A DNA stretch of 34,619 bases from positions 1 through 34,619 of the forward strand of contig QHMQ01000097.1 of assembly GCA_003217835.1 (NCBI GenBank), in the 5' to 3' direction. Shown here one piece after another: positions 4,324 through 34,374 of this stretch; positions within the stretch are counted from its first letter, which is position 1; each line of letters starts with the position of its first letter. Both the position numbers and the translations under genes were made by a program. Under the pieces are notes generated by a model, which was given only the letters and a program-made list of their open reading frames with translations, ran no database searches and had not been told where the DNA came from. The DNA is from Verrucomicrobiota bacterium. GTDB taxonomy: Bacteria > Verrucomicrobiota > Verrucomicrobiia > Chthoniobacterales > UBA10450.

Positions 4324-4336
4324 TCGCAAAACAAAG

Positions 4337-5197: not shown

Positions 5198-5199
5198 CG

Positions 5200-6192: not shown

Positions 6193-6203
6193 GCGATTTC
6201 ACA

Positions 6204-7223
6204 TTACATTTCGATCTCGTCGATTCGCTTCAGAACGCGTTGCTGAAGATTGTCCGGCATGGGCGCGTATTGGAGATCTTTGGCCATCTTCTCGCCGTCT
6301 TTGGCGGCCCATTTCAAAAATTCAACGAGCTTCTTTCCTTTGGCTGCGTCCTTCTGTTGCTGGTAAACGAGCAACCAAGTCGCGCCTGCAATCGGATAAG
6401 CATCCGCTCCCGGCGCGTTCGTGATGGAAAAGCGAAAATCGTCCGGGATATCGGCTGTGGCCAATGCCGTCGTGATCGACTCGATCGATGGCTTTACAAA
6501 ATTGCCCGCTGAATTTTTTACCTCGGCATACGGCATCTTGTTTTGGATCGCGTAGATCAGCTCCACGTACCCGAGCGCGCCCGGGGTTTGCTTGATTTGA
6601 CCGGCCACACCTTCATTGCCTTTGCCACCGATGCCAGTCGGCCAGTTGACCGAGGTATTTGTGCCCACTTTCGTCTTCCATTCTGGACTGATTTTGCTCA
6701 GGTAGTCGGTCCAAATGTAGGTCGTCCCGCTGCCATCGGATCGGTGGACGACTACGATCTCTTGATCGGGCAATGTGACTCCGGAATTTAGCCCCGTGAT
6801 CTTCGGGTCGTTCCACTTTTTGATTTGGCCGAGAAAGATGCCCGCGATTGTGTCAGCATCAAACTTGAGTGCCGGATTTCCCGGCAGGTTGTAGGCAACC
6901 ACATCCGCCCCGGCGACCGTTGGAATATGCAAGAGTTTGCCCGGCGCCTTCGACAGATTCTCATCGCTCATCGGACCATCCGATGCGCCGAAATCCACCG
7001 TCTGCGCGAGAATTTGCTTTTGGCCTCCGCCAGATCCAATCGACTGGTAATTAAATCGAACAGCGGGATCAATTTTCGCGTACTCATCGAACCATTTTGA
7101 GTAGATTGGATACGGGAAAGTTGCGCCTGCGCCGTTAATCATCATCTGCGCCGAGGCGGTCGTACTGATTCCGGCTAAGAGCACGAGATTGAAAATTTTG
7201 CGGGCAAATCTGGAAGATTTCAT
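6204..7223 (-). CDS. pstS: periplasmic phosphate-binding protein PstS
   Basis: 339-aa ORF with a signal peptide (..LLAGISTTASAQ). It then shows GAGATFPYPIYSKW, SIGSGGG and HRSDGSGTT, which are typical of PstS. Confidence 0.9.
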   Translation of the reverse strand: MKSSRFARKIFNLVLLAGISTTASAQMMINGAGATFPYPIYSKWFDEYAKIDPAVRFNYQSIGSGGGQKQILAQTVDFGASDGPMSDENLSKAPGKLLHIPTVAGADVVAYNLPGNPALKFDADTIAGIFLGQIKKWNDPKITGLNSGVTLPDQEIVVVHRSDGSGTTYIWTDYLSKISPEWKTKVGTNTSVNWPTGIGGKGNEGVAGQIKQTPGALGYVELIYAIQNKMPYAEVKNSAGNFVKPSIESITTALATADIPDDFRFSITNAPGADAYPIAGATWLLVYQQQKDAAKGKKLVEFLKWAAKDGEKMAKDLQYAPMPDNLQQRVLKRIDEIEM

Positions 7224-7271
7224 ATGTGTTCCCAGCCTGCCGCAGTGCGCGCGGAACGGTCAAAAAGTTTA

Positions 7272-7291
7272 GTGTTACTTTTGTGTGACAG
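7272..7291 (-). promoter_or_regulatory. candidate Pho box upstream of pstS
   Basis: The minus strand reads CTGTCACacaaAAGTAACac. That is two 7-nt units at 11-bp spacing, and the first matches the E. coli Pho-box half CTGTCA(C/T). It lies 49-68 nt upstream of the pstS ATG. The second unit is degenerate, and the spacing to a -10 (TAAACT at 7271..7266) is not canonical. Confidence 0.35.
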
Positions 7292-7338
7292 CTGCGCAGC
7301 TGACCCATTTGCAGGGACGACCTCAGTGTCGCCCTTTT

Positions 7339-8631
7339 TTAAGTGGACGGAACAGAGCTCGTCCCTCCAGGCAAAACCACGCGAATCGTCGTTCCGCAGC
7401 CAAGCTCGCTCTCGGCTTCCACACGTCCGCCGTGCAATTGGGCAATGTGTTTGACGATTGCCAGTCCAAGACCAGTCCCGCCGAGCTCCCGGCTGCGGGC
7501 TTTGTCGGCGCGGTAAAAGCGTTCAAAGATGCGGGGTAAATCATCCTTGCTGATTCCGAGTCCATCGTCACTGACGCTGAGGACGATTTCGGAATCGCGC
7601 CGCGCCGCTTGCAGACGAATCTCGCCGTTCTCGCGCGAATATTTCACCGCGTTCTCTAGTAAATTGTAGAGAACTTCCTGGAGTCGTGTTTCATCTGCGC
7701 GGATTGGCAGTGCATCCGGTGGAAGATCGACAACTACCTTTAAGTTTTTCTCGCCGAGTTTTTCTTTCCAATCGCGGAGAACGTGATCGAACAATTCTGG
7801 CAGCCGGACCTGGCCGATTTCCAAGTTGGTGTTTGCGGATTCCAATTGGGCAAGGCTCAGCAAATCATCGATCAGAAGCCCAAGCCGTTTGGAATGCCGT
7901 TCCATGACCTGAAGAATGCGTGCCAGTTCTTCGCGAGAAGTCTTCGGGTTTTCAACCAATGTCTCGATATATCCGCGCAAGATCGACAACGGCGTTCGCA
8001 GTTCATGCGAAACGTTCGCGACAAAATCGCTCCGGACCTGATCGAGTCGCTTCAATTGCGTGATATCGTGAAACAGAACGACCGCGCCAGTTGTTAGATG
8101 GACATCGTCCTTCATGGGGACTGCGCTGACCTCGACATGGCGCTCGGCGTTGGTTTTCGAGTCGGTCACGGTCAATTCGCTTTGCATCGGCTTGCCGGTA
8201 CGCAGCGTTTCCGCGATTAACCGATCCAGCGTCGCATGGCGGACGGTCTCAAGGAATGGAGCGCCTACGTTTGCCGCGTCTCGGAGCCCGAAGAGGTTTT
8301 CAAGAGTTCGATTCATCAGCGTAATGTGGCGGCGCGTGTCGACCACGAGCAGACCATCCTGCATCGCTCCAAGAATTGCTTGCGTCCCGGATTCGCGGCC
8401 TGCGATCTGCTGATCGAGTTGTTGCTGGCGGCGGAAAATATTTTCCAGCGCCAGCCCGACACGCTGCGCTAGCGTGCCACCATCGACAAGAAACGTGCGC
8501 GGCCGTTCGCCACCAGCTATTTGCCTAACGAGTTGCTCGATGTGTCGCCACGGTGCGATCCATTTTCGCCAGGCGACAAGCGCGATCGTCGCGAATACGA
8601 CAAAGATTACACCCAGAAATAGCCACGACAT
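7339..8631 (-). CDS. phoR: phosphate-regulon sensor histidine kinase
   Basis: 430-aa ORF with a single N-terminal TM segment and a PAS-like region. It has the H-box SHELRTPL and N/G boxes (LLENAVKY, DDGLGI, GGTGLGLAIVK). It starts 6 nt after phoB and lies next to pstS. Confidence 0.85.
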   Translation of the reverse strand: MSWLFLGVIFVVFATIALVAWRKWIAPWRHIEQLVRQIAGGERPRTFLVDGGTLAQRVGLALENIFRRQQQLDQQIAGRESGTQAILGAMQDGLLVVDTRRHITLMNRTLENLFGLRDAANVGAPFLETVRHATLDRLIAETLRTGKPMQSELTVTDSKTNAERHVEVSAVPMKDDVHLTTGAVVLFHDITQLKRLDQVRSDFVANVSHELRTPLSILRGYIETLVENPKTSREELARILQVMERHSKRLGLLIDDLLSLAQLESANTNLEIGQVRLPELFDHVLRDWKEKLGEKNLKVVVDLPPDALPIRADETRLQEVLYNLLENAVKYSRENGEIRLQAARRDSEIVLSVSDDGLGISKDDLPRIFERFYRADKARSRELGGTGLGLAIVKHIAQLHGGRVEAESELGCGTTIRVVLPGGTSSVPST

Positions 8632-8637
8632 TTCGCG

Positions 8638-9330
8638 TTAATTTTCCCGCAACCGATAACCAACGCCGCGCACACTTTCGATCACGTTGGCGGCTTTGCC
8701 GAGCTTTTTACGCAGCCGCCGCACATGGGTATCGACCGTGCGTGTGTCAATGATGCTCTCGTAGCCCCAAACATCGTTCAACAAACGGTCGCGCGCCTGG
8801 ACGCGGCCGCGTCGCTGCACAAGTGTGCGCAAGAGCTTGAATTCAAGGCTGGTGAGGTTGATCCGCTTGCCATCGACAGAAGCTTCATGACGCGCCGGAT
8901 CGATCATGATTGGACCGACCGCCAGACGTTCTTCCTCTTGTTTCGCGTCGCCTCGGCGCATTATCGCCCGGATTCGCAAAATGACTTCCCGAGGACTAAA
9001 TGGCTTTGTCACATAGTCATCGGCGCCAAATTCGAGGCCCACGATCCGGTCGATCTCCTCGGCTTTCGCGGTCAGCATCATGATTGGAATCTGGCGCGTC
9101 CCAGGATCGCTTTTTAGAATCTTACAAATCTCCAGTCCAGGCATTTTCGGCAGCATCAGATCGAGAATAATGAAAGCTGGCCTTTCGGTGCGCGCCTTAT
9201 GCAATCCAGCAGCGCCGTCGGTCGTCGACGAAATGGCGAAACCAGCTTTGCGTAAACTGAGCGTGAGAAGATCGACGACGTCCCGCTCGTCTTCGACGAT
9301 CAGAATTGTTTTGCCGGATGCCGCTTCCAT
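8638..9330 (-). CDS. phoB: OmpR-family response regulator, PhoB-like
   Basis: 230-aa ORF with a receiver domain (ILIVEDERD.., ILDLMLPKMPG, ..TAKAEE) and a winged-helix C-terminus (VDTHVRRLRKKL...GVGYRL). The assignment as PhoB is by context with phoR and pst. Confidence 0.85.
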   Translation of the reverse strand: MEAASGKTILIVEDERDVVDLLTLSLRKAGFAISSTTDGAAGLHKARTERPAFIILDLMLPKMPGLEICKILKSDPGTRQIPIMMLTAKAEEIDRIVGLEFGADDYVTKPFSPREVILRIRAIMRRGDAKQEEERLAVGPIMIDPARHEASVDGKRINLTSLEFKLLRTLVQRRGRVQARDRLLNDVWGYESIIDTRTVDTHVRRLRKKLGKAANVIESVRGVGYRLREN

Positions 9331-18397: not shown

Positions 18398-21300
18398 TTA
18401 GCTGCATCCCTGGCTTGTTCCGCATTCAGTGCAAACGCCGCAGGCGCCGGCGCGGATCACTTTGTCACTGCCGCAATGCGAACAGACGATGTCCATGAAC
18501 ATATTTCCAAGCGCCTCTTGCACTCGGTCGGCATGGCTGCTGCCGTTGCCCACTACCTGCGGCGAGCCATCGTTCGGTGAATGACTTATGATTACGTCGA
18601 TCAGCTCCTTTTCGCCTGTCCGCGCCAGATCGGAGACGGGTCGATTGAGCGCCTTTTTCTCCATCTCCGGAATTTCTTTCAACGGCAATTCCGTTTGTCC
18701 GCGTGTTGGTGAGGTGGCTTCCTTGTAACCTTTGATGAACTGGCAGGCGAGCCAGCGAAAAACATAGTCAGTGATGCTAGTTGCGTTTCGAATGTCGGGA
18801 TTCTTTGTGAAGCCGCTCGGTTCAAATCGTTGGTAAGCGAATTTTTTCACGAGGCTCTCGAGCGGCACGCCATACTGCAGGGCAATCGAGGTGAGAGTGC
18901 CGACGGTATCCATCAATCCGCCGATCGTGCTTCCCTCCTTTGACATTGTGATGAAGAGTTCACCCGGCTGACCATCCTCGTACAGGCCAACCGTGATGTA
19001 ACCTTCATGTCCGGCGATCTCGAACCGGTGCGTGAGCGACATTCGCGTGTCCGGCATGCGATGCCTGATTGGCTTGTCAAGTTTGCCCCGCAGCATGCCG
19101 AGTTCTTCCTCCAGCTCGAGAATGCGCTTCTCAAATTGATCGCGCCCGATCGTAGTGGCATCCAACGCAACATCGACGTCTTCTACCGCGCCCATGTGTT
19201 TTGTTTTGCGTGTATTAAGAGGCGCGGAACGCTTTGAGCTGTCGCGATAAATCGCGATCGATTTCAATCCGAGTCGCCACCCTTCCACGTAGGTGTTCAT
19301 GATGTCGTCGACCGTGGCCGTTTCGGGCATGTTCACCGTTTTCGAAATCGCACCGCTAAGGAACGGCTGCGCCGCAGCCATCATCCGCAGGTGTGCCATG
19401 TAATTGAGGCTGCGTTCGCCTTTAAATGGCTTGAACGCACAATCGAACTCGATTGTATCGAACGCGTCGATGTGTGCGATGATCCGTTCGATTTCTTCGG
19501 AATTGTAACCCAGTTTCTCCAGGGCGGGTTTCACCGTCTGATTGACAATTTTGAGCATTCCGCCGCCTGCGAGCAGCTTGTATTTTACGAGCGCGATGTC
19601 CGGCTCAATCCCGGTCGTATCGCAATCCATCAGGAAACTGATTGTGCCCGTCGGGGCAAGAACGGTGACCTGCGCGTTACGATAGCCGTAGCGCTTCCCG
19701 AGCTCCGCTGCACTTTCCCAAACTTTCGCCGCTTCCTCTTTCAAATGCGCGAACTCTTCCGCGTCCGAAATTTCCCTCACCGCGCAACGGTGCAAATCAA
19801 TGACTTCCGACATTGACGCGACGTTGTCTTTGGCCACTGGCTTGGGCACCCCGCTGGCGCGCGCATCATGATAACCGGGGAACGGCCCAATCGACTGCGC
19901 CAACCGTGCGCTTTGCTCGTATGCTTCGCCGGTCATGATTGCGGTGATCGCGCCGCAGAGCGCCCGGCCCTCCACGCTGTCATAACCGAAACCGTAGCTC
20001 ATAACAAGCGAGCCAAGATTCGCGTAGCCAAGCCCAAGCGTACGGAAAATATGCGAATTTTCCGCGATTTCTTTTATCGGGTAACTTGCGTTGTCCACGA
20101 TGATTTCCTGCGCGGTAATAAAAATGCGCACGGCCGCCTTGAATCGCTCGACATCAAAGTCGCCGTCCGCTGCCTTGAACTTCATCAAGTTGAGCGACGC
20201 AAGATTGCAGGCAGTGTTATCGAGAAAGAGATATTCCGAGCAGGGGTTGGTGGAATTTTGCCGATCCGTGCCTTTGCACGTGTGCCACTTGTGGATCGTG
20301 GAATCGAATTGCATTCCGGGATCGCCGCAGACATGCGTTCCTTCGGCGATCTTGCGCAACAGCGTGCGAGCATCTTTGCGCTCGCACGGTTTGCCGTCGC
20401 GCACCCGTCGCGTCCACCACTCACGACCTTCGAGCGCTGCTTCCATGAACTCGTCGCTTACGCGCACGCTTAGGTTTTCGTTTTGATACATGACCGAGCC
20501 GTACGCGTCGCCGTTATAACTGCCGTCGTAACCTTGCTCGACCAGCGCCCAGGCTTTTTTTTCCTCTTTCTGCTTCGCGTCGATGAACTCCTCGATGTCG
20601 GGATGCCAATCTTTCAGGGTATTCATCTTCGCGGCGCGCCGCGTTTTGCCGCCGCTCTTCACCACGTTCGCGACCTGATCGTAAACTTTAAGAAACGAAA
20701 GCGGCCCGCTCGGCTTGCCGCCGCCGCTCAACTTTTCTCTTGTCGATCTTAGCGAAGAAAGATCAGTGCCCGTGCCGCTGCCATACTTGAAGAGCATCGC
20801 CTCGCTCATCGCCAGCCGCATGATGTCTTCCATCGTGTCGTCCACCCTTTGAATGAAACAGGCACTTCCTTGCGGGTATTCGTACTGTGACGTGGCCCGC
20901 TCAGCTTTGCCGATCTCGCGATTATAAAAATAATTGCCGGCTCCCCCACCTCTGCCCACGCCGTATTGGTGGTACAAGCCAACGTTGAACCAGACCGGCG
21001 AATTAAACGCTCCGTGCTGATTCAGACAAAGCCAGGTCAGGTCGTCGTGAAAAGTTTCCGCGGCCTCTGTATCCGCGAAGTAACCATCTGCAATTCCCCA
21101 GTCGGTAATCGTGCGCGTGACACGATGAATCAATTGCCGCACCGAAGTTTCTCTTCCGCCTTTATGCGGATCGGTGCCGTTCCCGATGTCGCCGTAGAAA
21201 TATTTTGAGACCGCTATCTTGGTTGCCAGCGCGCTCCAGCTTTTCGGGACCTCGATATTCTCCTGCTTGAAGATAACCTTGCCACTGTCATCATTGATCT

Positions 21301-21478
21301 CCGCTGTGCGCCGTTCCCATTCGATTTGATCGAAGGGCGAAACGGTAGCATCACTGAACATGCGCTTAAAACGCAGACCGGTATTTTTCTTCTTTTCAGC
21401 CCTGTTTTTTTGGCGCCCGGCCAGCTTAGACGGTTCATTAAGTGAAGCAGGCGGAATTCCGGGTCTTAGTTGAATCAT
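18398..21478 (-). CDS. nrdJ: class II (adenosylcobalamin-dependent) ribonucleotide reductase
   Basis: 1026-aa ORF with the active-site loop TNPCSEYLFLDNTACNLASLNL, plus GLGYANLG and ISKTVNMP. It has the long C-terminal region of large NrdJ proteins, ending in a Cys-rich tail CSHCGS...CGVCTECG. Confidence 0.95.
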   Translation of the reverse strand: MIQLRPGIPPASLNEPSKLAGRQKNRAEKKKNTGLRFKRMFSDATVSPFDQIEWERRTAEINDDSGKVIFKQENIEVPKSWSALATKIAVSKYFYGDIGNGTDPHKGGRETSVRQLIHRVTRTITDWGIADGYFADTEAAETFHDDLTWLCLNQHGAFNSPVWFNVGLYHQYGVGRGGGAGNYFYNREIGKAERATSQYEYPQGSACFIQRVDDTMEDIMRLAMSEAMLFKYGSGTGTDLSSLRSTREKLSGGGKPSGPLSFLKVYDQVANVVKSGGKTRRAAKMNTLKDWHPDIEEFIDAKQKEEKKAWALVEQGYDGSYNGDAYGSVMYQNENLSVRVSDEFMEAALEGREWWTRRVRDGKPCERKDARTLLRKIAEGTHVCGDPGMQFDSTIHKWHTCKGTDRQNSTNPCSEYLFLDNTACNLASLNLMKFKAADGDFDVERFKAAVRIFITAQEIIVDNASYPIKEIAENSHIFRTLGLGYANLGSLVMSYGFGYDSVEGRALCGAITAIMTGEAYEQSARLAQSIGPFPGYHDARASGVPKPVAKDNVASMSEVIDLHRCAVREISDAEEFAHLKEEAAKVWESAAELGKRYGYRNAQVTVLAPTGTISFLMDCDTTGIEPDIALVKYKLLAGGGMLKIVNQTVKPALEKLGYNSEEIERIIAHIDAFDTIEFDCAFKPFKGERSLNYMAHLRMMAAAQPFLSGAISKTVNMPETATVDDIMNTYVEGWRLGLKSIAIYRDSSKRSAPLNTRKTKHMGAVEDVDVALDATTIGRDQFEKRILELEEELGMLRGKLDKPIRHRMPDTRMSLTHRFEIAGHEGYITVGLYEDGQPGELFITMSKEGSTIGGLMDTVGTLTSIALQYGVPLESLVKKFAYQRFEPSGFTKNPDIRNATSITDYVFRWLACQFIKGYKEATSPTRGQTELPLKEIPEMEKKALNRPVSDLARTGEKELIDVIISHSPNDGSPQVVGNGSSHADRVQEALGNMFMDIVCSHCGSDKVIRAGACGVCTECGTSQGCS

Positions 21479-21822: not shown

Positions 21823-22001
21823 TCTTGATTCTTGGGAACGTTGAGATTCTCATCGACGCAAAATTGGAGACACTATTTTTTATGGAAAACAAACTCGATC
21901 GCCTCGAGCGGGAAACACGCGCCGCGGCGTCGAGAAGCGAAATCACAAAGGAGGATTCCTCCCGCGCCTCGAAGAATCTATAAAAAAACGGGAAAGGCCG
22001 C

Positions 22002-22655
22002 ATGGAAAGAGCTTTTCCAAATCGAACAGCAGCCGGGCGTTTGCTCGCAGAAAAGCTCATTAAGTATGCCGGTCGCGATGACGTGATTGTTCTTGGTCTC
22101 CCGCGAGGCGGTGTGCCGGTTGCCTACGAGGTGGCGAAGCGATTGAACGTGCCTCTCGATGTTTTCATCGTGCGCAAATTGGGTGTCCCCGGCTTTGAAG
22201 AACTCGCCGCCGGTGCGATCGCCTCCGGCGGCGTGCGCGTTTTGAACGAAGACGTCATGCGCGCCTTGCCTAACGCGGATGAAGCCATTGAATCGGTAAC
22301 GGCGAGAGAAACCGCCGAGCTGGAACGGCGCGAGCAAAGTTATCGCGAGGGGCACCCCGCACCGGAGCTGCGCGATCGTGTTGTCATTCTGGTGGATGAC
22401 GGTCTGGCGACCGGGGCAACCATGCGCGCTGCGATCAAGGGGTTGCGGCAGCGCGGTGTCGCGAAAATCGTCGTAGGAGTGCCGGTTGGTCCGCCGGATA
22501 CTTGTCGCGAATTCGAGGAAGAAGCCGACGAAACGATTTGCGCGACCGCGCCCGAATTTTTTCAGGCAGTCGCTCAGTATTACGAAGATTTTCCCCAAAC
22601 GAGCGACGAAGAAGTGCGCGACCTGCTCGCACGCGCTGCGCAGAGGAATGAATGA
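22002..22655 (+). CDS. predicted phosphoribosyltransferase (type I PRTase fold, COG1926-like), substrate unknown
   Basis: 217-aa ORF with FxNRxxAGRxLA..., VLGLPRGGVPVA and the PRPP-binding loop VVILVDDGLATGATMRAA. Confidence 0.85.
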   Translation: MERAFPNRTAAGRLLAEKLIKYAGRDDVIVLGLPRGGVPVAYEVAKRLNVPLDVFIVRKLGVPGFEELAAGAIASGGVRVLNEDVMRALPNADEAIESVTARETAELERREQSYREGHPAPELRDRVVILVDDGLATGATMRAAIKGLRQRGVAKIVVGVPVGPPDTCREFEEEADETICATAPEFFQAVAQYYEDFPQTSDEEVRDLLARAAQRNE

Positions 22656-23314
22656 TGCACCTGGAAGAAGTGCAAATTCAGGCTGGACCTGCGGCTCTCT
22701 CTGGGAATTTGAGCATTCCCGAGAAGGCCACCGCGCTGGTTCTTTTCGTTCACGGCAGCGGCAGCAGCCGGCACAGTCCGCGGAATCAATTCGTCGCGCG
22801 CACTTTGAACAATGCCGGACTAGGGACACTCCTGTTCGATCTGCTTACGCCGGAAGAGGAAGCGATCGACGCACGCACTGCCGAACTTCGATTCAACATT
22901 AAACTGCTTGCGGAGCGGCTTGTTCACGCGACCAACTGGGCAAAGCAGCAGCAGGAAACTCGCAGTTTGCGGATTGGTTATTTTGGATCGAGCACGGGGG
23001 GCGGCGCGGCGCTGGTTGCAGCTGCGGAGGGGTCGCAAGATGTCGGAGCGGTGGTTTCGCGCGGAGGCCGCCCCGATTTGGCAGGCGAAGCGTTGCCGAA
23101 AGTGCAAGTGCCTACCTTGCTCATCGTCGGTGGAGACGACGATATCGTGATCGAACTAAACGAGCAGGCGCGCGATCGGATGCACTGCGAAGTGAAGCTC
23201 GAGATCGTTCCCGGCGCGACGCATCTCTTTGAAGAACCGGGCGCCCTCGAGCGAGTCGCGCACCTGGCGAGCAATTGGTTCGTCGATCACATTGGCGCGA
23301 AATCCGAACTGTAG
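22652..23314 (+). CDS. dienelactone-hydrolase-family alpha/beta hydrolase
   Basis: 220-aa ORF with VLFVHGSGSSRHSPRN and a nucleophile elbow GSSTGG. The C-terminal region LIVGGDD...PGATHLFEEPG supplies the Asp and His candidates. The start overlaps the PRTase stop (ATGA, 22652..22655). Confidence 0.85.
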   Translation: MMHLEEVQIQAGPAALSGNLSIPEKATALVLFVHGSGSSRHSPRNQFVARTLNNAGLGTLLFDLLTPEEEAIDARTAELRFNIKLLAERLVHATNWAKQQQETRSLRIGYFGSSTGGGAALVAAAEGSQDVGAVVSRGGRPDLAGEALPKVQVPTLLIVGGDDDIVIELNEQARDRMHCEVKLEIVPGATHLFEEPGALERVAHLASNWFVDHIGAKSEL

Positions 23315-23348: not shown

Positions 23349-24194
23349 TCAGCGCGACTCTTTGTAAGTCACAACGCGTCCCCACAAGCTCTTGGTCCCC
23401 CAAATGCCGGCACGTAGGCATTCCAGCTGAACAATCTGACTGTGATCGACGAAGAGATTCACCTCCGCGCCATAGTTTTTAATATACCACGCGAACACAT
23501 CCGGATCGGCGGCTTCGAACATGAGTTTCTCCGTCCCGATCTCGTCTATCAATCGCGCGGGCACATCCGTCCGCCATGGATCGACATTCTCGGTGATGCC
23601 TTCACTCTCGATCATGATGATCTCAGCGCCCGCATCGAGAAATCGTTTTGCCTGTGTGATCGCCCAGCTCGGATCGCGCGTTCCTTCGGCCTCAAGTTCT
23701 GCGGCAGCGGTCGCGCCACCCGCCCCGAATTGAATCCCAACTTCGGGCTTCGCCTTCATTCCGGACTTGCGCACAAGTTCAATGAGTCGCAGCCAGTCGT
23801 CGGTCGGAATTGAGACAAAACCGGCCGAGATTTCGACAATATCAAAGTCGAGCTTCTTGCATTCGGTGACGTATTGCCGCACCGCGCCTCCGTCTTGCGC
23901 AAGCACGCGCTCGACGAAACCGCCGGTGGAAACGAGCACGTCATGCTTGTGGCAAAGATCGACAATATCCCGAACAGTTTGAGGAGACATCAGAGTGAAC
24001 GAACCGCCAGCGAATTTCAGCGAATCGACATAAGTGCCCATCATTTCAAACAAGTCTTCCAAGTAACGTCGACCGACGACTGAGTAATACGGACCGCGGA
24101 TTTCCGTTAGTCCGCGCTTGCGCGGCTTGGTTTCGCGCTCGTTGACGCGGAGAAATGGAAAACTGCGGTCGCCTTTGGTGTTGTTTGCTTTCAT
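23349..24194 (-). CDS. phosphosulfolactate synthase family protein (ComA/YitD-like)
   Basis: 281-aa ORF. The pattern ..ETKPRKRGLTEIRGPYY.., YVDSLKFAGGSFTLM, DVLVSTGGFVE, DIVEISAGFVSIP and KPEVGIQFG matches my recollection of the ComA (PF02679) TIM-barrel family. Confidence 0.8.
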   Translation of the reverse strand: MKANNTKGDRSFPFLRVNERETKPRKRGLTEIRGPYYSVVGRRYLEDLFEMMGTYVDSLKFAGGSFTLMSPQTVRDIVDLCHKHDVLVSTGGFVERVLAQDGGAVRQYVTECKKLDFDIVEISAGFVSIPTDDWLRLIELVRKSGMKAKPEVGIQFGAGGATAAAELEAEGTRDPSWAITQAKRFLDAGAEIIMIESEGITENVDPWRTDVPARLIDEIGTEKLMFEAADPDVFAWYIKNYGAEVNLFVDHSQIVQLECLRAGIWGTKSLWGRVVTYKESR

Positions 24195-26695: not shown

Positions 26696-27916
26696 ATGGC
26701 GCGTTATCGCATCACACAGATTGAAGACTACGAGCCGCTCATTGGAAGCGAAAAAGTCGAGCGTATCCGTGAGAAGGCCGGGAAGTTCAAAGATCTGCGC
26801 GTAGCCAATTTCAATTCGACCTATTACGGGGGCGGAGTGGCCGAGATGATTTCGTCGCTTACCCTGCTCATGAACAGCCTTGGTCTTCGTAGCGAGTGGC
26901 GCGTAATTCAGGGAACGGCTGACTTTTTCTCGATCACGAAGAAGATGCACAACGCGCTCCAAGGCGGCGAGATCGATCTCTCGGCCATCAAAAAAGAAAT
27001 CTACGAACAGGTCATTTACGAAAACAGCGTCCGCAATTTTCTAGAGCACGATTTCGTCATCGTCCACGATCCGCACCCGCTTCCGTTCATCGAGCACTAC
27101 GAAAAAAAATGCCCATGGATCTGGCGCTGCCATATCGATCTTTCACGGCCCGATGCAGAAATGTGGAAATATTTGCGCCATTGGATCGACAAATACGACG
27201 CCGTCATCGTGAGTTGTCCCGAATACAAGCAGGAGATGAAGCCGCCACAGCGCGTCTTCATGCCTGCGATCAACCCGTTCAGCATTAAAAACCGTGAGCT
27301 AGGCGACGACGAAATCCACGAGCGCCTCGCGCACTACAAAATTCCAACCGATTTGCCATTGGTAGTGCAAATTTCGCGTTTTGATCCGTGGAAAGATCCA
27401 GAGGGAGTAGTAGAAGCCTTCAAGCGCGCGCGTAAAGAAGTCGATGCCACACTTGTGTTGCTGGGCAACTTCGCGACTGACGATCCCGAAGGCCGGGAGA
27501 TTTTTGAGTCCCTCTGCGCCTGCCAGGATGAGCGCATATTGATTCTGACCAGCGGCGACGACACTGCGCTGGTGAACGCGTTGCAAACCCGCGCAGCGGT
27601 CGTTCTCCAAAAATCGCTCCGTGAAGGATTCGGGCTCACGGTTGCCGAAGCGATGTGGAAAGGGACACCTGTGATCGGCGGAAACGTCGGCGGAATTCGC
27701 TACCAGATCGAGAACGGGGTGAATGGTTTTCTCGTTTCGTCGGTCGAAGAAGCCGCCGAATGCATCGTTCGCCTACTGAAGGATGAGAAATTGCGCGACG
27801 AAATAGGACAGAAGGCTCGCGAAGCTGTACGCGAGAAATTTCTGCTCACCCGTTACGTCGAACAATATCTGGATCTCTTCGCCGCCTTCGACGAGGACTT
27901 TCGTTTGCAAGAATAA
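26696..27916 (+). CDS. treT: trehalose glycosyltransferring synthase (TreT-type GT4 glycosyltransferase)
   Basis: 406-aa ORF that is collinear with archaeal and thermophile TreT as I recall it. Shared segments are NSTYYGGGVAEM, FFSITKKMHNALQG, HDPHPLP, PWIWRCHIDLS, SRFDPWKDP, DDPEG and SLREGFGLTVAEAMWKGTPVIGGNVGGI. Confidence 0.85.
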   Translation: MARYRITQIEDYEPLIGSEKVERIREKAGKFKDLRVANFNSTYYGGGVAEMISSLTLLMNSLGLRSEWRVIQGTADFFSITKKMHNALQGGEIDLSAIKKEIYEQVIYENSVRNFLEHDFVIVHDPHPLPFIEHYEKKCPWIWRCHIDLSRPDAEMWKYLRHWIDKYDAVIVSCPEYKQEMKPPQRVFMPAINPFSIKNRELGDDEIHERLAHYKIPTDLPLVVQISRFDPWKDPEGVVEAFKRARKEVDATLVLLGNFATDDPEGREIFESLCACQDERILILTSGDDTALVNALQTRAAVVLQKSLREGFGLTVAEAMWKGTPVIGGNVGGIRYQIENGVNGFLVSSVEEAAECIVRLLKDEKLRDEIGQKAREAVREKFLLTRYVEQYLDLFAAFDEDFRLQE

Positions 27917-27985
27917 ATCGGACGTTCGCGACCGTTCCGGTCCCGGGCTGGGAGATGACTTTGCTTCTCAGTTGAATCGGTGGCG

Positions 27986-28537
27986 CTATTGGCTTTTCGC
28001 CCGTCCGATCACGCCACAGGCAACGCGCGCTCCCGAGTCACCGGCCGGTTGCGATTTGAGATCGTCCGCTTTCGCGTGGACAACGACAGAACGGCCAATG
28101 ATCGAACGGTCGTCGTTAGACAGCGACATGTTGTGATCCAGATAATCCAATTTTGCCGCACCCGAAGTATCCGCCTCGATGTTGCCCATGTCGCCAACAT
28201 GCCGGGCAGTCGCATCAGGGGCCGCGTGTGGCTGTTTCGTTGGATTAAAGTGAGCGCCGGCAGAATTTGCATCGGCCGCGGCGCAATCGCCAAATTCATG
28301 GACATGAAACCCATGTTTGCCCGGAGTAAGGCCGGTAATTTCCGCGTGGACTTGAACCCCGTCTGCGACCTCAGTGAACATGACGGTACCGCTAACCTTG
28401 TTGTCCTGTGTGGGGTGGAGCACGGCGATGGCCTTCAGCGGGACCAACGATTTCTCTTCCGGCGCCTCCGCTTGCGCGATGATCGCCGTGAGCGACAAAA
28501 AGATCAATGCAATTACAGAGATTGGAAACGACTTCAT
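27986..28537 (-). CDS. sodC: periplasmic Cu,Zn superoxide dismutase
   Basis: 183-aa ORF with a signal peptide (..LTAIIAQAEA). The metal-ligand motifs are HGFHVHEFGDC, GAHFNP, HVGDMGN and VVVHAKADD, and the conserved C-terminal ACGVIG is present. Confidence 0.93.
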   Translation of the reverse strand: MKSFPISVIALIFLSLTAIIAQAEAPEEKSLVPLKAIAVLHPTQDNKVSGTVMFTEVADGVQVHAEITGLTPGKHGFHVHEFGDCAAADANSAGAHFNPTKQPHAAPDATARHVGDMGNIEADTSGAAKLDYLDHNMSLSNDDRSIIGRSVVVHAKADDLKSQPAGDSGARVACGVIGRAKSQ

Positions 28538-28749
28538 ACAAAATACTTCGTCGCATCACGCTATTCCAGCTGCATGACTTTTGTCTACTCTACATCGACT
28601 CTTGTTCATCGCAGAATCAACTCCATCCCATCGTGGGCAATGCCCGCTTCGAGTTCGCGTTCGATGCCCATCTCGCGCGCGACGAAATTTGTGCTCCGCT
28701 TAGATAAGCTTTCGTCGAAACGCGTGGCAAAGGCAGAACATCCAAAGAA

Positions 28750-31422
28750 ATGACCTCGGAGCGAACATTGCAATCGGTCGTGGACTCGTTACGCGACCAC
28801 GGCAGGAAGACGGCGTTGGTGGTCTTTGGCAGGAAAGATCGATATCATTGGTCTTTTCAGGAACTGGCGGCTTGCGCACTCTCGTTCGCTAATGGGCTCG
28901 TTAAGCACGATTTCAAGCGCGGCGACACCATTGCGATTTTCTCGGAAAACAGCCCGGAATCGATCGCGGCTGTGCTGGGAATCATTCGCGCAGGGATGGT
29001 CGCTGTGCCCCTGGATGTCCAGCTTGACGACAAGACTCTGAGACACACGCTGCAAGACAGTGACGCGCGCGCGATCATCACGACAAGAAAGCGAGTGGAT
29101 CGGATCGAGAAACTCGATCTCAAAGAAAGGCCAAAGCTCATCCTGATCGACGCTGGCCAGAACGACGATCGAAGTTGGGAGCGATTTATAGAAACTGAGG
29201 AAACGGAACTTCCAGCGGTCAGCCGCGACGACGAAGCGGTTCTGTTTTACACGTCTGGAACGACCGGTCCTCCGAAGGGCGTGCCGTTGAGTCACGGCAA
29301 TATTATCTCGCAGCTCGACACGGCCGCCAAAGTGCAGCTCATCACCGGCGAGGATCGTGTGTTGCTCCCGCTGCCCTTGCATCATGTCTATCCATTTGTG
29401 ATCGGCATGCTGGCCCCGCTCGCCCTAGGTCTGCCGCTGATTTTGCCATTTTCACTGAGTGGCCAGCAATTGCTGCGCGCTTTACGGGAGGGCGAAACGA
29501 CGGCGATTGTAGGCGTTCCGCGGCTCTACAGCGCGCTCTATTCTGGAATTGAGGCGAGAGTAAAGTCTGCCGGCTGCATCGCGCGCAGATTGTTTAGCAT
29601 TTTTCTGGCCACAAGTGGATTTGTGCGAAAATCATTCGGCCTACGGGCCGGCAAGTTGCTGTTTCGCTCGTTGCACAAACGCTTTGGCAAAAATCTCAGG
29701 CTGCTTGCCTCTGGCGGCTCGGCGCTCGATCCCAAGCTAGGTTCGAAACTTGAAGCGCTCGGCTGGCAAGTCGCCATCGGCTACGGACTCACCGAGACTT
29801 CACCGCTTCTCACGGTAAACTTGCCTAACAAGTCATCGCGACTGGACACCGCGGGAAAACCCGTTGCGGACGTGGAGATTCGCATCGAACCGAGCGCGCT
29901 CGAAAAAGAAGAGCGCATCGATGGACACGAGGTCGGCGAGGTCGTTGCACGCGGGCCGAATGTCTTTGCCGGCTACCGGAATCTTCCAGACAAAACCGAC
30001 GAAGTCTTTGCCGAAAATCGATGGTTCCGCACTGGCGACATGGGTTATTTCGATAACGACGGGAATCTTCATCTGCTCGGACGCCTGTCGACGTTGATCA
30101 AAACCGAAAGCGGCGAGAAAATCCAAACCGAGGATGTCGAAACGGCGTATGCCGAGGAATCCGCCATTCGCGAGATCGGCGTGCTCGAGAAAAAAGGCAA
30201 GCTTGTCGCGCTCGTAGTGCCGAAGCAGACGGGAAGCGATGCAAAGGACGCTGTCCGCATAGCGATCGAGACAGCGTCAAAACGGTTGCCGAGTCATCAG
30301 CGCATTTCGGAGTACGCTATCACGCCCGATGCGTTGCCGCGCACGCGGCTCGGTAAAATCCAGCGTCATCGGCTGGCCGAACGTTACGACCAGGCAAAAG
30401 AAGGCGGCGAAAAGGCTCCCGCCGCGGGCCCGATGTCGATCGAAGAAATGTCGGGCGAAGATCGCGCACTGCTGGAGGATTCCGCCACGCAATCCGTGTG
30501 GGAAATGCTTGCGAAACGGTATCGCGGCAAGCGACTGACACCGGACACAAGTCCGCAGTTCGATCTCGGAATCGATTCGCTCGAGTGGTTAAATCTCACG
30601 CTGGAAATCGCCGAATCCAGCGGAGTGGAATTGACCGATGAAGCGATCGCGCGCATCGAGACCGTGCGCGATCTCCTGCACGAAGTGACAGAGAGCAGCG
30701 AAGGCGAATCGGTCGATCCGTTGGAAAAACCCGACGAAGTCCTCGACGAGAAGCAAAAACAATGGCTCGAGCCGCTCGGCCTGGTCGCCGCTACGACTGC
30801 GCGTTTTCTCTATGCGGTGAATCGCGTGTTGATGCGCGTGATCTTTCGGCTGCGCGTCGAGGGACTTGAACATTTGCCGGAAGACGAGCAATGGGTGATG
30901 ACACCAAACCATGCCAGTTACCTCGATCCGTTCGCGATTGCCGCATTGCTCGACTGGAACCAGTTGCGCAAAACCTATTGGGCTGGTTGGACCGGCATCG
31001 TTCTCGCGAATCCGGTGATGCGTTTCCTCAGCCGGCTGGGAAAGATTTTGCCGGTCGAGCCAATGCGCGCTGCGCGCTCAAGCCTGGCTTTTGGGGCCAC
31101 CATCCTGAAAAACAAAAAGAACCTCGTTTGGTTTCCCGAAGGCGGACTCTCGGCCAATGGAGAGTTGCAAGACTTCAAACCGGGCATAGGGATGCTACTG
31201 GAACATTTCCCAGCACGAGTCGTTCCCGTGTTTGTTCACGGCACGCACCAAGCTCTGCCACCGGGAAAGTTTTTTCCCAAGCCACATGCGATTTATGTCG
31301 TGTTCGGCAAGGCGCTCGACGCGCAACAACTGAAGCGTGAGGGCCGCGGCGAAAAACCGCAGCAAGAGATCACGAACGCCTTACACGATTACGTAGCGAA
31401 GCTCGCACAGGGCGTTTCCTGA
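28750..31422 (+). CDS. three-domain fusion: fatty-acid AMP ligase (acyl-CoA/acyl-ACP synthetase-like), acyl-carrier (PP-binding) domain, and PlsC-family acyltransferase
   Basis: 890-aa ORF. The adenylation motifs are YTSGTTGPPKGV (aa 167-178), GYGLTETSP, WFRTGDMGYFD and LGKIQRH (to about aa 545). The carrier motif is FDLGIDSLEWL, with Ser610 at nt 30577-30579. The acyltransferase has HX4D as NHASYLDP (His721, nt 30910) and a WFPEGGLS block. Confidence 0.9.
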   Translation: MTSERTLQSVVDSLRDHGRKTALVVFGRKDRYHWSFQELAACALSFANGLVKHDFKRGDTIAIFSENSPESIAAVLGIIRAGMVAVPLDVQLDDKTLRHTLQDSDARAIITTRKRVDRIEKLDLKERPKLILIDAGQNDDRSWERFIETEETELPAVSRDDEAVLFYTSGTTGPPKGVPLSHGNIISQLDTAAKVQLITGEDRVLLPLPLHHVYPFVIGMLAPLALGLPLILPFSLSGQQLLRALREGETTAIVGVPRLYSALYSGIEARVKSAGCIARRLFSIFLATSGFVRKSFGLRAGKLLFRSLHKRFGKNLRLLASGGSALDPKLGSKLEALGWQVAIGYGLTETSPLLTVNLPNKSSRLDTAGKPVADVEIRIEPSALEKEERIDGHEVGEVVARGPNVFAGYRNLPDKTDEVFAENRWFRTGDMGYFDNDGNLHLLGRLSTLIKTESGEKIQTEDVETAYAEESAIREIGVLEKKGKLVALVVPKQTGSDAKDAVRIAIETASKRLPSHQRISEYAITPDALPRTRLGKIQRHRLAERYDQAKEGGEKAPAAGPMSIEEMSGEDRALLEDSATQSVWEMLAKRYRGKRLTPDTSPQFDLGIDSLEWLNLTLEIAESSGVELTDEAIARIETVRDLLHEVTESSEGESVDPLEKPDEVLDEKQKQWLEPLGLVAATTARFLYAVNRVLMRVIFRLRVEGLEHLPEDEQWVMTPNHASYLDPFAIAALLDWNQLRKTYWAGWTGIVLANPVMRFLSRLGKILPVEPMRAARSSLAFGATILKNKKNLVWFPEGGLSANGELQDFKPGIGMLLEHFPARVVPVFVHGTHQALPPGKFFPKPHAIYVVFGKALDAQQLKREGRGEKPQQEITNALHDYVAKLAQGVS

Positions 31423-31473
31423 CATTCGACAATTTTCGAATTGCGAAGCCAGTTGGAAGCAAAATAATACCCG

Positions 31474-32910
31474 TCATCGCGGATTCTGTGCAGAATCACT
31501 TGGCGATCGCGATGCTGCCGCGAAAAACGAATTTACCCACGAGAACACGTTCTCGTTCGATATCAGCTGTCTCATGCGCTTCATGCGCATGCTGCGTTGC
31601 GCCTTGCTCATTCGGAATGCTTTCAAAATCGTGTCAGCCACCTGCTCGACATCGTAGGGATTCACCAGTAGCGCGCTGCGCTTCAGCTGCTCCGCCGCGC
31701 CGGCGAATTCGCTGAGAATCAGCACGCCGCTTTTGTCTATGCGACATGCGCAATATTCCTTGGCGACGAGGTTCATCCCATCTTTCAGCGGCGTGACCAG
31801 CGCGATTTCGCACGCCCGGTAGTGGGCCAGCAGATCGTCGCGATCGAGGCGGCGAAAGCGATAATGCACGGGCAGCCAGGTATCGGTCGAGAAGCGACCG
31901 TTGATGTCGCCGACTAAACGATCGATGCGATCCTTGAACTCGTGATATCTGGGAATTTCTACTCGACTCGGCACAACATTCTGGATCAGGACCACGCGAC
32001 CTCGCAGTTCCTCGTACCGCTCCAATCCATCGCGGAACGCGCGCAGGCGCTCGGGAATTCCCTTGCTGTAATCGAGCCGATCCACGCCGAGAACGAGCTG
32101 GCAGCCGGGAAAAGCGGCGCGCAGCTGTTCAGCCCGCTGCGCGACTTCCTGCGACGCCGCGCCTTTTTCAAACGACTCGAAATCGATGCCGATGGGGAAA
32201 CTGCCGACGCGGACCTCGCGCTTTTCGACGCGGATTAAATGGAGCCCCGCAATGGTATGAACGGCCGCGTCGGGCAGCACGCGCCGTACGCATTGCAGGA
32301 AGTTGCGGAGGTCGCGGCGTGTCTGGAACCCGAGAAGATCGAATTGGAGCAGAGCGCGCAATAGCCGTTGTTGTTGTGGCAGCTTGGCGAAGATGTCGTA
32401 GGCCGGAAATGGGATGTGCAGGAAGAACGTCAACGCCGCGCTTACGCCGCGCTCGCGCAGCGCTTGAGCAACATACATCAGGTGATAATCGTGCACCCAG
32501 ATGAAATCGTCGCGCTCGCAGTGTTGCGCGATGGTCTCGGCGTAACGCTGATTGACCGCCTTGTAAGTCTGCCAAAAGGCCGGCTCGAAGTTGCAGAAGT
32601 TTTGTAAGTCGTGAAACAGCGGCCAGATGACTTCGTTGGAATAGCCGTAGTAAAACTCGTCACGCTCCGCCTCACTCAACGCCACTGGTATGACTTGGTA
32701 ACCGGCGTTGCGCGAGGCGTCGGCGAGAGGCGCCTGCGGAATATCACCCGCCATGCCGATCCAGCCGATCCACGTCCCCGCGCGTTCGCGCAACACTGGC
32801 TCGATGGCTCTGACGAGTCCGCCGACAGAGGACGTCACGATCCATGGACCGCTTCCTACTCGCTCAAGGGCGAATGGCAACCGATTAGACACGAGGATAA
32901 GCCGATTCAT
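31474..32910 (-). CDS. otsA: alpha,alpha-trehalose-phosphate synthase (GT20)
   Basis: Motifs: [57 protein letters not shown] and [15 protein letters not shown] placed the start at the ATG at 32910 (478 aa), which matches the canonical OtsA N-terminus. The GTG at 33009 is the upstream limit in the track. Confidence 0.9.
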
Positions 32911-32986
32911 GGGCGCGGATTTCACAGATGAATCGTGCGCCGCTGTTGGGTTGCGCCCGCAGCTGGTGCGTCCATCATGTGCGAAG

Positions 32987-33817
32987 AATATGATGCGGAG
33001 ATCGCCCACTCACGACTCACTTGGGAACAAAATTCCTTCCGCGCTCGATCATGTCCACGAGATCGCGATTCGCGGACGGCAGCTTGCTGTTTTCCTCGAT
33101 TATGACGGGACGCTCACGCCGATCGTCAACCGACCGGAGGAAGCGGTACTCGCCGATTCAATGCGACAGGCGGTGCGGACGCTGGCTAATCGTGTGCCAG
33201 TCGCGATTCTTAGCGGTCGCGATCTGGAGGACATCCGGCGCCGCGTCGATATCGACGGAATCGTTTATGCCGGCAGTCACGGCTTCGACATCGCCGGGCC
33301 GCGCGGCCTGCACAAACAAATGGCTACAGAGTTTCTGTCAATTCTCGATGCTGCAGAAAAACAGCTTCATGAAAGACTCGCCGGCGTCTCTGGTGCTTTC
33401 CTAGAGCGGAAACGTTTCTCCATCGCCGCGCACTACCGGAATGTGGACGACAGCGATGTTTTCAAAGTCGAGCAAGCGGTGAATGAAGCGGCTGCGCACT
33501 GTCGCGAGCTGCGCGTGACCGTGGGTAAAAAAGTTTACGAGCTCCAGCCGAACATCGATTGGGACAAAGGCAAAGCCCTGATCTGGCTGCTGGATACGTT
33601 GGGCTTGAACCAGTCGAAAGCGCTTTCGCTTTACATTGGCGATGATCTCACCGACGAAAACGCCTTCCGCGCGCTGCGGCAACTTGGCATCAGCATCGTT
33701 GTAAGTGAGCAGCCGCGGTCGAGTGCCGCGCACTATGCGCTTAAGAGCCCGGCGGAAGTCGAGCGCTTCTTGCACGAACTCACCACGCGTGCCGAGAAAT
33801 GCGAGATTTATCGGTAA
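32987..33817 (+). CDS. otsB: trehalose-6-phosphate phosphatase (HAD family)
   Basis: HAD motif I FLDYDGTLTP, then ILSGR, then motif III/IV KGKAL...YIGDDLTDENAF. I chose the start at ATGATG 32987 (276 aa). The track ORF start at 32708 runs antisense through the otsA N-terminus. Confidence 0.85.
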   Translation, partial: NMMRRSPTHDSLGNKIPSALDHVHEIAIRGRQLAVFLDYDGTLTPIVNRPEEAVLADSMRQAVRTLANRVPVAILSGRDLEDIRRRVDIDGIVYAGSHGFDIAGPRGLHKQMATEFLSILDAAEKQLHERLAGVSGAFLERKRFSIAAHYRNVDDSDVFKVEQAVNEAAAHCRELRVTVGKKVYELQPNIDWDKGKALIWLLDTLGLNQSKALSLYIGDDLTDENAFRALRQLGISIVVSEQPRSSAAHYALKSPAEVERFLHELTTRAEKCEIYR

Positions 33818-33942
33818 AGATTGAATCGTTTTAGAGATTGATGCGATCCCGGACGCGCGGCGCCGAATTGCGGGCCATCAACGACACTTGCCAGGGCGTG
33901 ACGAGTTGCTACGGTCATCCTTTCTTGCACTGGAGGAACAGT

Positions 33943-34374
33943 ATGTCGTTATCGGAAAACAAAGATTTGGCCCGGCGGGCTATCGGCCTTTGGACACAGG
34001 GCAGCAAAGAAAGTCTCGAGCAGATTTTCGGGAGCGATTACGTGAACCATCAGCATCATCATCCGGACCGCGCTGAAGCAATTCGCGGACTCGACGCGTG
34101 GAGGCAGTTTATTACCACGTTCCATGAAGCGTTTCCCGATTTCGAGGACCGGATCGTCGCGCAGATCGCCAAAGGGGATATGGTTGCGACGCAGTTTGTT
34201 TCCACAGGTACGCAGAAAGGTGAAATGATGGGCATTCCGGCTACGGGCCGGCGTGCCAGTTGGACCGGCATCGTGATTGATCGCGTTGCGAATGGCAAGA
34301 TTGCCGAGAGTTGGGCCAATTGGGACATGTTCGGGATGCTCCAACAGTTGCGCGCGGTCAAAGCGCCGAAATAG
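33943..34374 (+). CDS. SnoaL-like / predicted ester cyclase family protein
   Basis: 143-aa ORF MSLSENKDLARRAIGLWTQG...DYVNH...FHEAFPDFEDRIVAQIAKGDMVATQF..GTQKGEMMGIPATGRRASWTGIVIDRVANGKIAESW. This pattern is typical of the SnoaL/ester-cyclase fold. A GGAGG at 33932-33936 lies 6 nt before the ATG. Confidence 0.8.
   Translation: MSLSENKDLARRAIGLWTQGSKESLEQIFGSDYVNHQHHHPDRAEAIRGLDAWRQFITTFHEAFPDFEDRIVAQIAKGDMVATQFVSTGTQKGEMMGIPATGRRASWTGIVIDRVANGKIAESWANWDMFGMLQQLRAVKAPK

Follow-up and report, generated by a model that had tools for sequence, protein, structure and literature searches.

The question raised by this locus is whether a single polypeptide can activate a free fatty acid, tether it to a carrier of its own and transfer it to a membrane lipid. 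The gene concerned lies on contig QHMQ01000097.1 (assembly GCA_003217835.1) of a Verrucomicrobiota bacterium belonging to the Chthoniobacterales, and the DNA analyzed, referred to below as the window, is the whole stretch of 34,619 nucleotides (nt). According to the list of open reading frames (ORFs), the gene occupies positions 28750-31422 of the forward strand (stop codon included) and encodes a protein of 890 amino acids (aa); its ATG start matches the N-termini of the homologs in the alignment. The protein combines an adenylation (A) domain, an acyl carrier protein (ACP) domain and an acyltransferase (AT) domain of the lysophospholipid acyltransferase (LPLAT) type, in this order. Judging from its sequence, we consider it likely that the protein follows a general activate-tether-transfer scheme, and we lean slightly towards the full statement that it is a self-contained A-ACP-LPLAT enzyme that re-acylates lysophospholipids with free fatty acids. 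Its architecture equals that of ElbD minus the reductase (ACS-ACP-AT), and in function it would be an Aas-like enzyme with a built-in ACP.

The three domains and their functional motifs

All Pfam matches in the protein pass the curated cut-offs: AMP-binding (PF00501) at aa 14-409 with 261 bits, AMP-binding_C (PF13193) at aa 463-536 with 26.9 bits (cut-off 24.5), PP-binding (PF00550) at aa 595-644 with 25.7 bits (cut-off 20.8), and Acyltransferase (PF01553) at aa 700-829 with 66.6 bits (cut-off 23). A preliminary description of this DNA had proposed the domains PF00501, PF00550 and PF01553, and these are confirmed, including the carrier region, which passes the PP-binding profile. The same is true for the motifs that it had quoted. 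The motifs located in the protein start at aa 167 (YTSGTTGPPKG), 344 (GYGLTE), 426 (FRTGD), 535 (GKIQR), 607 (GIDSL, containing Ser610), 721 (HASYLD) and 795 (FPEG). No C, KS, TE or reductase (R) domain was detected in the 890-aa protein by the Pfam scan, and no PKS/NRPS context was found among the neighbors, in agreement with the view that it is not a standard non-ribosomal peptide synthetase (NRPS) or polyketide synthase (PKS). The absence of these domains and of a cluster context also led us to reject a reading as part of a biosynthetic cluster.

The A domain contains the A3 P-loop, A5, the A7 motif (Y/F)RTGD, the A8 hinge and the A10 lysine that characterize the ANL superfamily (PF00501). 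Its N-terminal subdomain (aa 14-409, positions 28789-29976 on the forward strand, to which all domain coordinates below refer) was delimited by PF00501 and includes A3 at aa 167-177 and A5 at aa 344-349, both of which are invariant in the homologs. The C-terminal subdomain (aa 445-548, positions 30082-30393; PF13193, PF23562) includes the A10 lysine, K536 (codon 30355-30357), and the A8 hinge, GR444-445, is located just upstream of it; G444, R445 and K536 are likewise invariant in the homologs.

Between A4 and A5, the A domain contains a family-conserved insertion of ~45 aa (aa 265-312, positions 29542-29685), which was identified from the alignments and is predicted to be helical. All solved ANL structures align with the domain in two pieces that break at aa 265-314, and the structure search produced no solved structure that aligns across it. 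The alignment with Escherichia coli Aas, which lacks the insertion, has a gap at the same place. An AlphaFold2 model of all 890 aa, built from an alignment of 18 sequences, is poor (mean predicted local distance difference test score (pLDDT) 62.9), and within it the helices of the insertion are predicted with a pLDDT of ~70-84. The insertion holds a hydrophobic stretch, AGCIARRLFSIFLATSGFV, and may be a membrane-contact or gating element. It may resemble the corresponding stretch of the eukaryotic-type long-chain acyl-CoA synthetases (ACSL/COG1022), a lead to which the JGI name "long-chain acyl-CoA synthetase" also points.

The acyl carrier (phosphopantetheine-binding) domain (PF00550) covers aa 595-644 (positions 30532-30681), and the codon of its putative attachment serine, Ser610, is found at 30577-30579. 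The domain has the D-S-L attachment serine of ACP-like PF00550 carrier proteins and is closest to the fatty acid synthase (FAS)-type ACP models of NCBIfam. In addition, the profile of the family matches solved FAS-type ACPs at ~5e-8, and in these matches DSL is aligned with the serine to which the ACPs attach their phosphopantetheine. Because the Asp-Ser pair is invariant and the profile matches genuine ACPs, the carrier is not a chance match. Just before it, alignments A1 and A3 revealed a conserved linker motif, PMSIEEMSGEDRALLED (aa 561-577, positions 30430-30480), which could be a docking element or a helix-0 element of the carrier. The pattern EEMSG[ED]D[RQ], taken from this motif, proved selective enough to be used in genome scans.

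The LPLAT/PlsC-type acyltransferase domain (aa 700-829, positions 30847-31236) was assigned using PF01553, the NCBIfam Aas models, the solved structure 5KYM and the alignment. Block I, NHASYLD (aa 720-726), contains His721 (codon 30910-30912) and Asp726 (codon 30925-30927); block II, ILPVEP, is Aas-like; and block III is FPEG (aa 795-798, positions 31132-31143). HX4D and FPEG, which place the domain in the LPLAT/PlsC family (PF01553), are invariant across the relatives. The acyltransferase core is preceded by a predicted long helix (aa 676-700, positions 30775-30849; helix at aa 678-697 in the model, pLDDT ~70-80), which aligns with the N-terminal 20 residues of Aas from E. coli and is a candidate membrane-interface element.

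Distribution and conservation of the family

The size of the family was assessed by an exhaustive search of 1.84 billion representative proteins, for which the query was limited to the C-terminal 335 aa. The carrier plus acyltransferase module was found in at least 376 clusters (50% identity) at E<=1e-30, and most full-length members are ~870-930 aa long and match at their C-terminus, that is, they have the same architecture. A word-indexed search gave at least 120 close homologs, and those with a source name are all annotated as "long-chain acyl-CoA synthetase", "AMP-binding protein" or "hypothetical protein"; the organisms named among the close homologs listed are metagenome-assembled genomes (MAGs) of Verrucomicrobia or Chthoniobacterales. 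The family is present in the Verrucomicrobiota, Actinomycetota, Acidobacteriota, Planctomycetota, Proteobacteria and Fusobacteriota.

A scan of the GTDB species genomes (alignment A3) returned 70 loci in several phyla, a set that the two peptide patterns of the scan bias towards relatives keeping EEMSGxD or WAGWTG. These loci come from soil Verrucomicrobia, other Chthoniobacterales, Rubrobacter, Bryobacteraceae, Gemmatimonadaceae, Planctomycetes, and Alpha-, Gamma- and Deltaproteobacteria, and the closest ones belong to Candidatus Udaeobacter (79-83% identity). Essentially all loci that are not truncated by a contig end have the A domain fused upstream, and 65 have an ORF of ~889 aa. Among cultured bacteria, the family is carried by Rubrobacter radiotolerans (a 911-aa copy on plasmid 1) and Thioalkalicoccus limnaeus (L051); at a greater distance (23-27% identity), Ilyobacter polytropus has two copies in tandem, and Fusobacterium also yields matches. 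Hence, the rarity implied by the preliminary description has to be given up: with so many clusters and loci, and with cultured Rubrobacter and Ilyobacter among the carriers, the architecture is common, and it is already in print. A literature search using the Pfam triple PF00501/PF00550/PF01553 found nothing.

Some variation in copy number and gene structure was observed. The tandem copies of Ilyobacter polytropus (L074, 1664-6831) are both of the A-ACP-AT type, and a Pelovirga MAG has three copies (L045, L046 and L047). In a Cellvibrionales MAG (L061, 4107-7027), the gene is represented by two abutting ORFs (4107-5666 and 5663-7027), which may reflect a real split or a frameshift.

The functional residues are strongly conserved, as would be expected for a working activate-tether-transfer enzyme. 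In 18 full-length homologs with 58-91% identity, A3, A5, A7, A8 and K536 of the A domain are invariant, and so are D609-S610-L611 of the carrier and N720-H721, D726 and F795-P-E-G of the acyltransferase. When the carrier and acyltransferase halves of 15 far more divergent members (35-51% identity) are compared, there is still no exception to Asp-Ser, N-H-x-S-x-x-D and F-P, and the Glu of F-P-E is almost always kept. Since attachment and catalytic residues are conserved down to ~35% identity, all three activities appear to be under joint selection.

Relationship to Aas, PlsC and ElbD

One of the closest known systems is E. coli Aas, a bifunctional 2-acylglycerophosphoethanolamine acyltransferase/acyl-ACP synthetase (PRK08043), which was compared, like E. 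coli PlsC, using the MG1655 sequence. Aas makes acyl-ACP from holo-ACP and then acylates lysophospholipids delivered by LplT (PMC11416262); the common reaction logic would lead from a fatty acid to an acyl-carrier thioester and on to a lipid ester. BLASTP aligned aa 35-464 of our protein with aa 233-630 of Aas (E 6e-22) and aa 687-831 with aa 2-139 (E 2e-12), with identities of 24% and 26%; both matches far exceed what chance would produce. The LPLAT domain and the fatty-acid-activating ANL domain are therefore both homologous to those of Aas, and HX4D, FPEG and the type of block II are shared. However, the acyltransferase is N-terminal in Aas, whereas here the A domain comes first and the acyltransferase last; moreover, Aas uses free holo-ACP and has no carrier domain, whereas here the carrier is built in. 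The permuted alignment of both Aas domains thus bears out the earlier claim of an inverted order with a carrier in cis.

To rank the models, the acyltransferase fragment was scanned alone against NCBIfam. Its top three matches are the Aas models PRK08633 (76 bits), PRK06814 (62 bits) and PRK08043 (49 bits), while AGP_acyltrn/PlsC (TIGR00530) scores 36.8 bits (cut-off 103) and the OlsA models 23 and 17 bits (cut-off 300). In the alignment, a block II of the form P-V/L-E/D-P is common to the family and E. coli Aas, and both lack the "LIDR" segment of PlsC. By these comparisons, the acyltransferase resembles that of Aas more than PlsC or OlsA. Enzymes of the PF01553 family acylate glycerolipid-type acceptors, and a lysophospholipid is the likeliest acceptor here in view of the features that the acyltransferase shares with Aas. 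The re-acylation of lysophospholipids, which the preliminary description had mentioned as a conservative alternative, emerges as the best-supported reading.

According to this reading, the A domain, which is like that of long-chain acyl-CoA ligases, would convert a free fatty acid and ATP into acyl-AMP. After a rotation of its C-terminal subdomain, the acyl group would be picked up as a thioester by the carrier in cis, through the phosphopantetheine thiol at Ser610. The carrier would deliver it to the LPLAT domain, whose His721/Asp726 dyad would pass it on to a hydroxyl group of a lipid at the cytoplasmic face of the membrane; the likeliest acceptor is a lysophospholipid, which is also the acceptor of Aas. 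In this way, free fatty acids would be salvaged into membrane lipids, or lysolipids would be repaired, and no soluble acyl-ACP would be formed on the way.

Several points weigh against this reading. Loading in cis, the choice of acceptor and the role of the enzyme in the cell are inferred from sequence, and block II and the profile ranking are weak evidence for the acceptor. The whole protein scores 228 bits against 1221 for the Aas equivalog PRK08633, and 171 against 1349 for a second one, and the acyltransferase fragment reaches 48.7 bits with PRK08043 (cut-off 886); because the scores are far below every NCBIfam equivalog cut-off, the protein is not an Aas orthologue. It had been considered previously that the architecture might turn out to be both common and that of a plain Aas orthologue, and only the former proved to be the case. 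A tblastn search with E. coli LplT revealed no LplT-like flippase in the window or in the comparison loci. In the AlphaFold2 model, the pLDDT is <50 for the C-terminal subdomain of the A domain and for the carrier. No acyltransferase activity was detected for isolated ElbD (PMC9131029). Finally, the best NCBIfam and PDB matches of the A domain are acyl-CoA ligases (PRK06187, oxalate- and malonyl-CoA ligases, FadD13, FadD5 and ttLC-FACS), and no FAAL structure is among its 60 best PDB matches. The hallmarks of FAALs are a specific insertion or helix and a blocked CoA pocket, and their usual context is PKS/NRPS. Judged by its matches, the A domain is acyl-CoA-ligase-like rather than FAAL-like; it might for this reason also, or instead, make acyl-CoA, and the earlier suggestion that the enzyme could work without soluble CoA is not supported.

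An inverted order with a built-in carrier is not without precedent, since Myxococcus xanthus ElbD (UniProt Q1DC43), which was compared by its published architecture only, has the ACS-ACP-AT order. ElbD is a FAR-ACS-ACP-AGPAT protein; its ACS and ACP activities have been confirmed in vitro, and its in-cis ACP is loaded by its ACS domain (PMC9131029). It has an N-terminal fatty-acyl reductase (FAR), whereas here none is found, either fused, in the window or among the recurrent neighbor families. It is also encoded in the elb operon, with elbB (HAD phosphatase), elbC and elbE (epimerase/dehydratase), whereas here the neighbors are sodC, treT, otsA and otsB. The FAR1 domain is missing from nearly all "ElbD-like homologues" of other phyla, which come without lipid data (PMC9131029), and split elbD genes, encoding a reductase and an A-ACP-AT protein, occur in Poribacteria and Acidobacteria (bioRxiv 10.64898/2026.06.23.733905). 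ElbD homologues and agps homologues were each found in 43/270 Black Sea Verrucomicrobia MAGs, and verrucomicrobial Pontiella isolates with ElbD homologues have no detectable ether lipids (PMC11868695). Setting the protein apart from the myxobacterial ether-lipid enzyme, as had been done before, is not supported: the order is the same, the N-terminal reductase is the only extra part of ElbD, and homologues lacking FAR have been published. Surveys of FAAL-like proteins also mention fusions or contexts with lysophospholipid acyltransferases, which are uncharacterized (PMC8460268, PMC12820801). In FAAL-ACP didomains, as would be the case in our protein, the fatty acyl group is passed from the adenylating domain to a carrier in the same polypeptide; these and the FAAL-like-LPLAT systems differ in that the A domain here ranks with acyl-CoA ligases and has no PKS/NRPS context. 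Hence, the A-carrier-AT architecture has been recorded before, and the protein is one more member of a large family that has been noticed but is uncharacterized.

The precedent of ElbD leads to another explanation, namely that the protein feeds an ether-lipid or neutral-lipid pathway, with an acyltransferase acting like GNPAT/AGPAT, for instance to provide acyl-dihydroxyacetone phosphate for AGPS, and with the reductase located elsewhere or unneeded. The shared domain order, the FAR-less homologues, the split elbD variants and the presence of ElbD and agps homologues in Verrucomicrobia MAGs would all fit. We nevertheless regard this as unlikely, given that the protein has no reductase domain, that no FAR, elbB-like HAD, elbE-like epimerase or AGPS is encoded in the window, that Pontiella lacks detectable ether lipids, and that the acyltransferase ranks nearest to the Aas-type models. 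Similarly, FAR/NAD_binding_4, epimerase, HAD, AGPS and PKS/NRPS are all absent from the recurrent families of 93 immediate neighbors in the comparison loci. A PlsC-like de novo step, in which lysophosphatidic acid (LPA) or glycerol-3-phosphate would be acylated with exogenous fatty acid to yield phosphatidic acid directly, has in its favor that the closest solved structure to the acyltransferase is Thermotoga maritima PlsC (5KYM, E 6e-24, with HX4D and FPEG aligned) and that TIGR00530 matches. However, T. maritima PlsC works by itself, its substrates being LPA and soluble acyl-ACP or acyl-CoA. The arginine of PlsC block II (x-x-I/L-D-R) binds the LPA phosphate, and this segment is absent here, where the Aas-like PVEP is found instead; the TIGR00530 score is below the cut-off, and the PlsC models score below the Aas models. 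The residue after FPEG-x is Arg in many members and Leu here and in some close relatives, and hence is not a fixed phosphate ligand. We accordingly judge a PlsC-like role to be distinctly unlikely. The possibility that the carrier is unused, the A domain making acyl-CoA or loading free AcpP, the acyltransferase taking a soluble donor and the ACP-like segment acting as a linker or docking element, would be in line with an A domain most like acyl-CoA ligases, with the lack of a FAAL signature and with a modest PP-binding score. Yet a vestigial domain would not keep an invariant Asp-Ser, as this one does at 35-51% identity, and the match of the family profile to genuine ACPs, with the serine in register, also speaks against this possibility; a bystander carrier therefore seems improbable to us. 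Still less probable is an OlsA-like step in which a lyso-aminolipid, for example lyso-ornithine lipid, is O-acylated: the OlsA equivalog models do match weakly, but far under their cut-off and below the Aas and PlsC models, and no olsB-like gene is a recurrent neighbor.

If the lysophospholipid reading is extended to the family, its members could provide single-polypeptide fatty-acid salvage or membrane repair without CoA or free ACP, replacing the two-component Aas and AcpP (and LplT) in a broad range of soil and aquatic bacteria, among them the abundant, genome-streamlined Udaeobacter lineage, or could act in some lineages on an unrecognized lipid acceptor; this extension is tentative, and we would rather bet against it. 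If the mechanism proposed above holds, the family would constitute a compact route by which free fatty acids go straight into membrane lipids or lysolipid repair, the acyl chain never leaving the enzyme. Such a route would serve many environmental bacteria, among them the Udaeobacter-like Verrucomicrobia, which include the closest relatives of the window. It would also fill an annotation gap for thousands of "AMP-binding protein" entries, and would call for caution in using loose ElbD homology as an ether-lipid marker in metagenomes (compare PMC11868695). The family is amenable to testing because cultured carriers exist, namely Rubrobacter radiotolerans and Thioalkalicoccus limnaeus and, more distantly, Ilyobacter and Fusobacterium.

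Gene neighborhood and other features of the window

On its 5' side, the fusion gene is flanked by genes for TreT (26696-27916, forward strand) and a Cu/Zn superoxide dismutase, SodC (27986-28537, reverse strand), and on its 3' side by genes for OtsA (31474-33009, reverse strand) and OtsB (within 32708-33817, forward strand), as had been described. OtsB, which forms a pair with OtsA, is a genuine trehalose phosphatase (PF02358, 2e-57). According to the gene coordinates and the sequence, the fusion gene shares a 212-nt intergenic region (28538-28749), presumed to be the promoter region, with the divergent sodC, and its transcription unit ends in the 51-nt gap (31423-31473) to the convergent otsA. 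Being divergent from sodC and convergent with otsA, the gene forms its own transcription unit. The Rfam scan detected no element in the 212-nt region, a tRNA being the sole Rfam match, and a scan for consensus promoters and terminators around the gene was uninformative.

The neighborhood had given rise to the idea that the enzyme acylates trehalose, trehalose-6-phosphate or another stress-related, non-phospholipid acceptor, coupled to treT, otsA and otsB. This view may be supported by the flanking genes themselves and by the presence of trehalose genes within 10 kb of the family gene in four other loci (L001, L003, L004 and L006). When the neighbor proteins of the window were compared by tblastn with all 70 loci, however, TreT, SodC, OtsA or OtsB were found near the gene only in these four, all from a clade with at least 74% identity, and at varying distances and orientations. 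Three further informative loci of the same clade (L005, L007 and L008) have none of these genes nearby, and the more distant lineages have no trehalose genes nearby either, except for an OtsB-like match 7.5 kb away in L032. Clustering of the ORFs gave no neighbor family in more than 6/65 loci, and a Pfam scan no family in more than 3/93 immediate neighbors. On this evidence, the trehalose linkage is local synteny in one clade rather than a conserved functional association. Since no neighbor is conserved across the family, and since the gene is a separate transcription unit whose closest profiles are Aas, PlsC and OlsA, the trehalose acceptor is largely refuted by the sequence comparisons, and of all the explanations considered it is the one to which we give the least credence. 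The absence of a conserved neighbor fits a self-sufficient housekeeping enzyme such as the one favored here. A literature search on Udaeobacter, trehalose and fatty acids found nothing relevant. The window itself is thus ordinary, providing one further family member with no special trehalose link, and the family is of more interest as a target for biochemistry.

A generic, related MFS transporter gene abuts the fusion gene in a few loci from several lineages that are not related to each other: Rubrobacter (L073, 9676-10965), L036 (6850-8115), the Cellvibrionales MAG (L061, 2783-4117), the Pelovirga copies (L045-47; 3337-4635 in L046) and a Phycisphaeraceae locus (L032, 6577-8049). These adjacent genes do not match the LplT model, with which the E. 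coli control scored 579 bits. Together with the negative tblastn search, their generic nature led us to discard a partnership with LplT as evidence. The abutting gene may encode a partner that transports lipids or fatty acids, or its position may be a coincidence, and this weak hint was not counted as evidence.

The region at 26696-34374 brings two trehalose routes together, TreT and the divergent OtsA/OtsB, and also includes SodC and a SnoaL-like protein, so that it looks like a small stress-protection neighborhood. Parts of it recur, shuffled, in loci of the Udaeobacter clade. The remainder of the window is ordinary chromosome, with a Pho cluster, uvrA, ilvC, an acyl-CoA dehydrogenase gene, a class II ribonucleotide reductase gene and a tRNA-Ser, as well as two NAD-salvage genes, one for NAPRTase and one of the isochorismatase family (pncA-like). 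No gene for a phosphopantetheinyl transferase or FAR, and no other lipid gene, was found within the 34.6 kb.

Some other features of the window deserve mention. The Pho cluster (439-9330, reverse strand) is a complete phosphate-regulon block consisting of ppk1, phoU, pstB, pstA, pstC, pstS, phoR and phoB. At 23349-24194 on the reverse strand, a gene for ComA, a (2R)-phospho-3-sulfolactate synthase (PF02679, E 1e-82), is found in this Verrucomicrobium; L001 and L003 also have ComA-like sequences close to the family gene, and the role of the enzyme here may concern sulfolactate or a sulfonate-type metabolite. A 257-aa ORF antisense to sodC (27980-28753, forward strand) and a 283-aa ORF antisense to a phosphoribosyltransferase gene (21978-22829, reverse strand), the latter without a Pfam match, are most likely spurious. 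The class II (B12-dependent) ribonucleotide reductase, encoded at 18398-21478 on the reverse strand, is a protein of 1026 aa with a C-terminal TSCPD domain.

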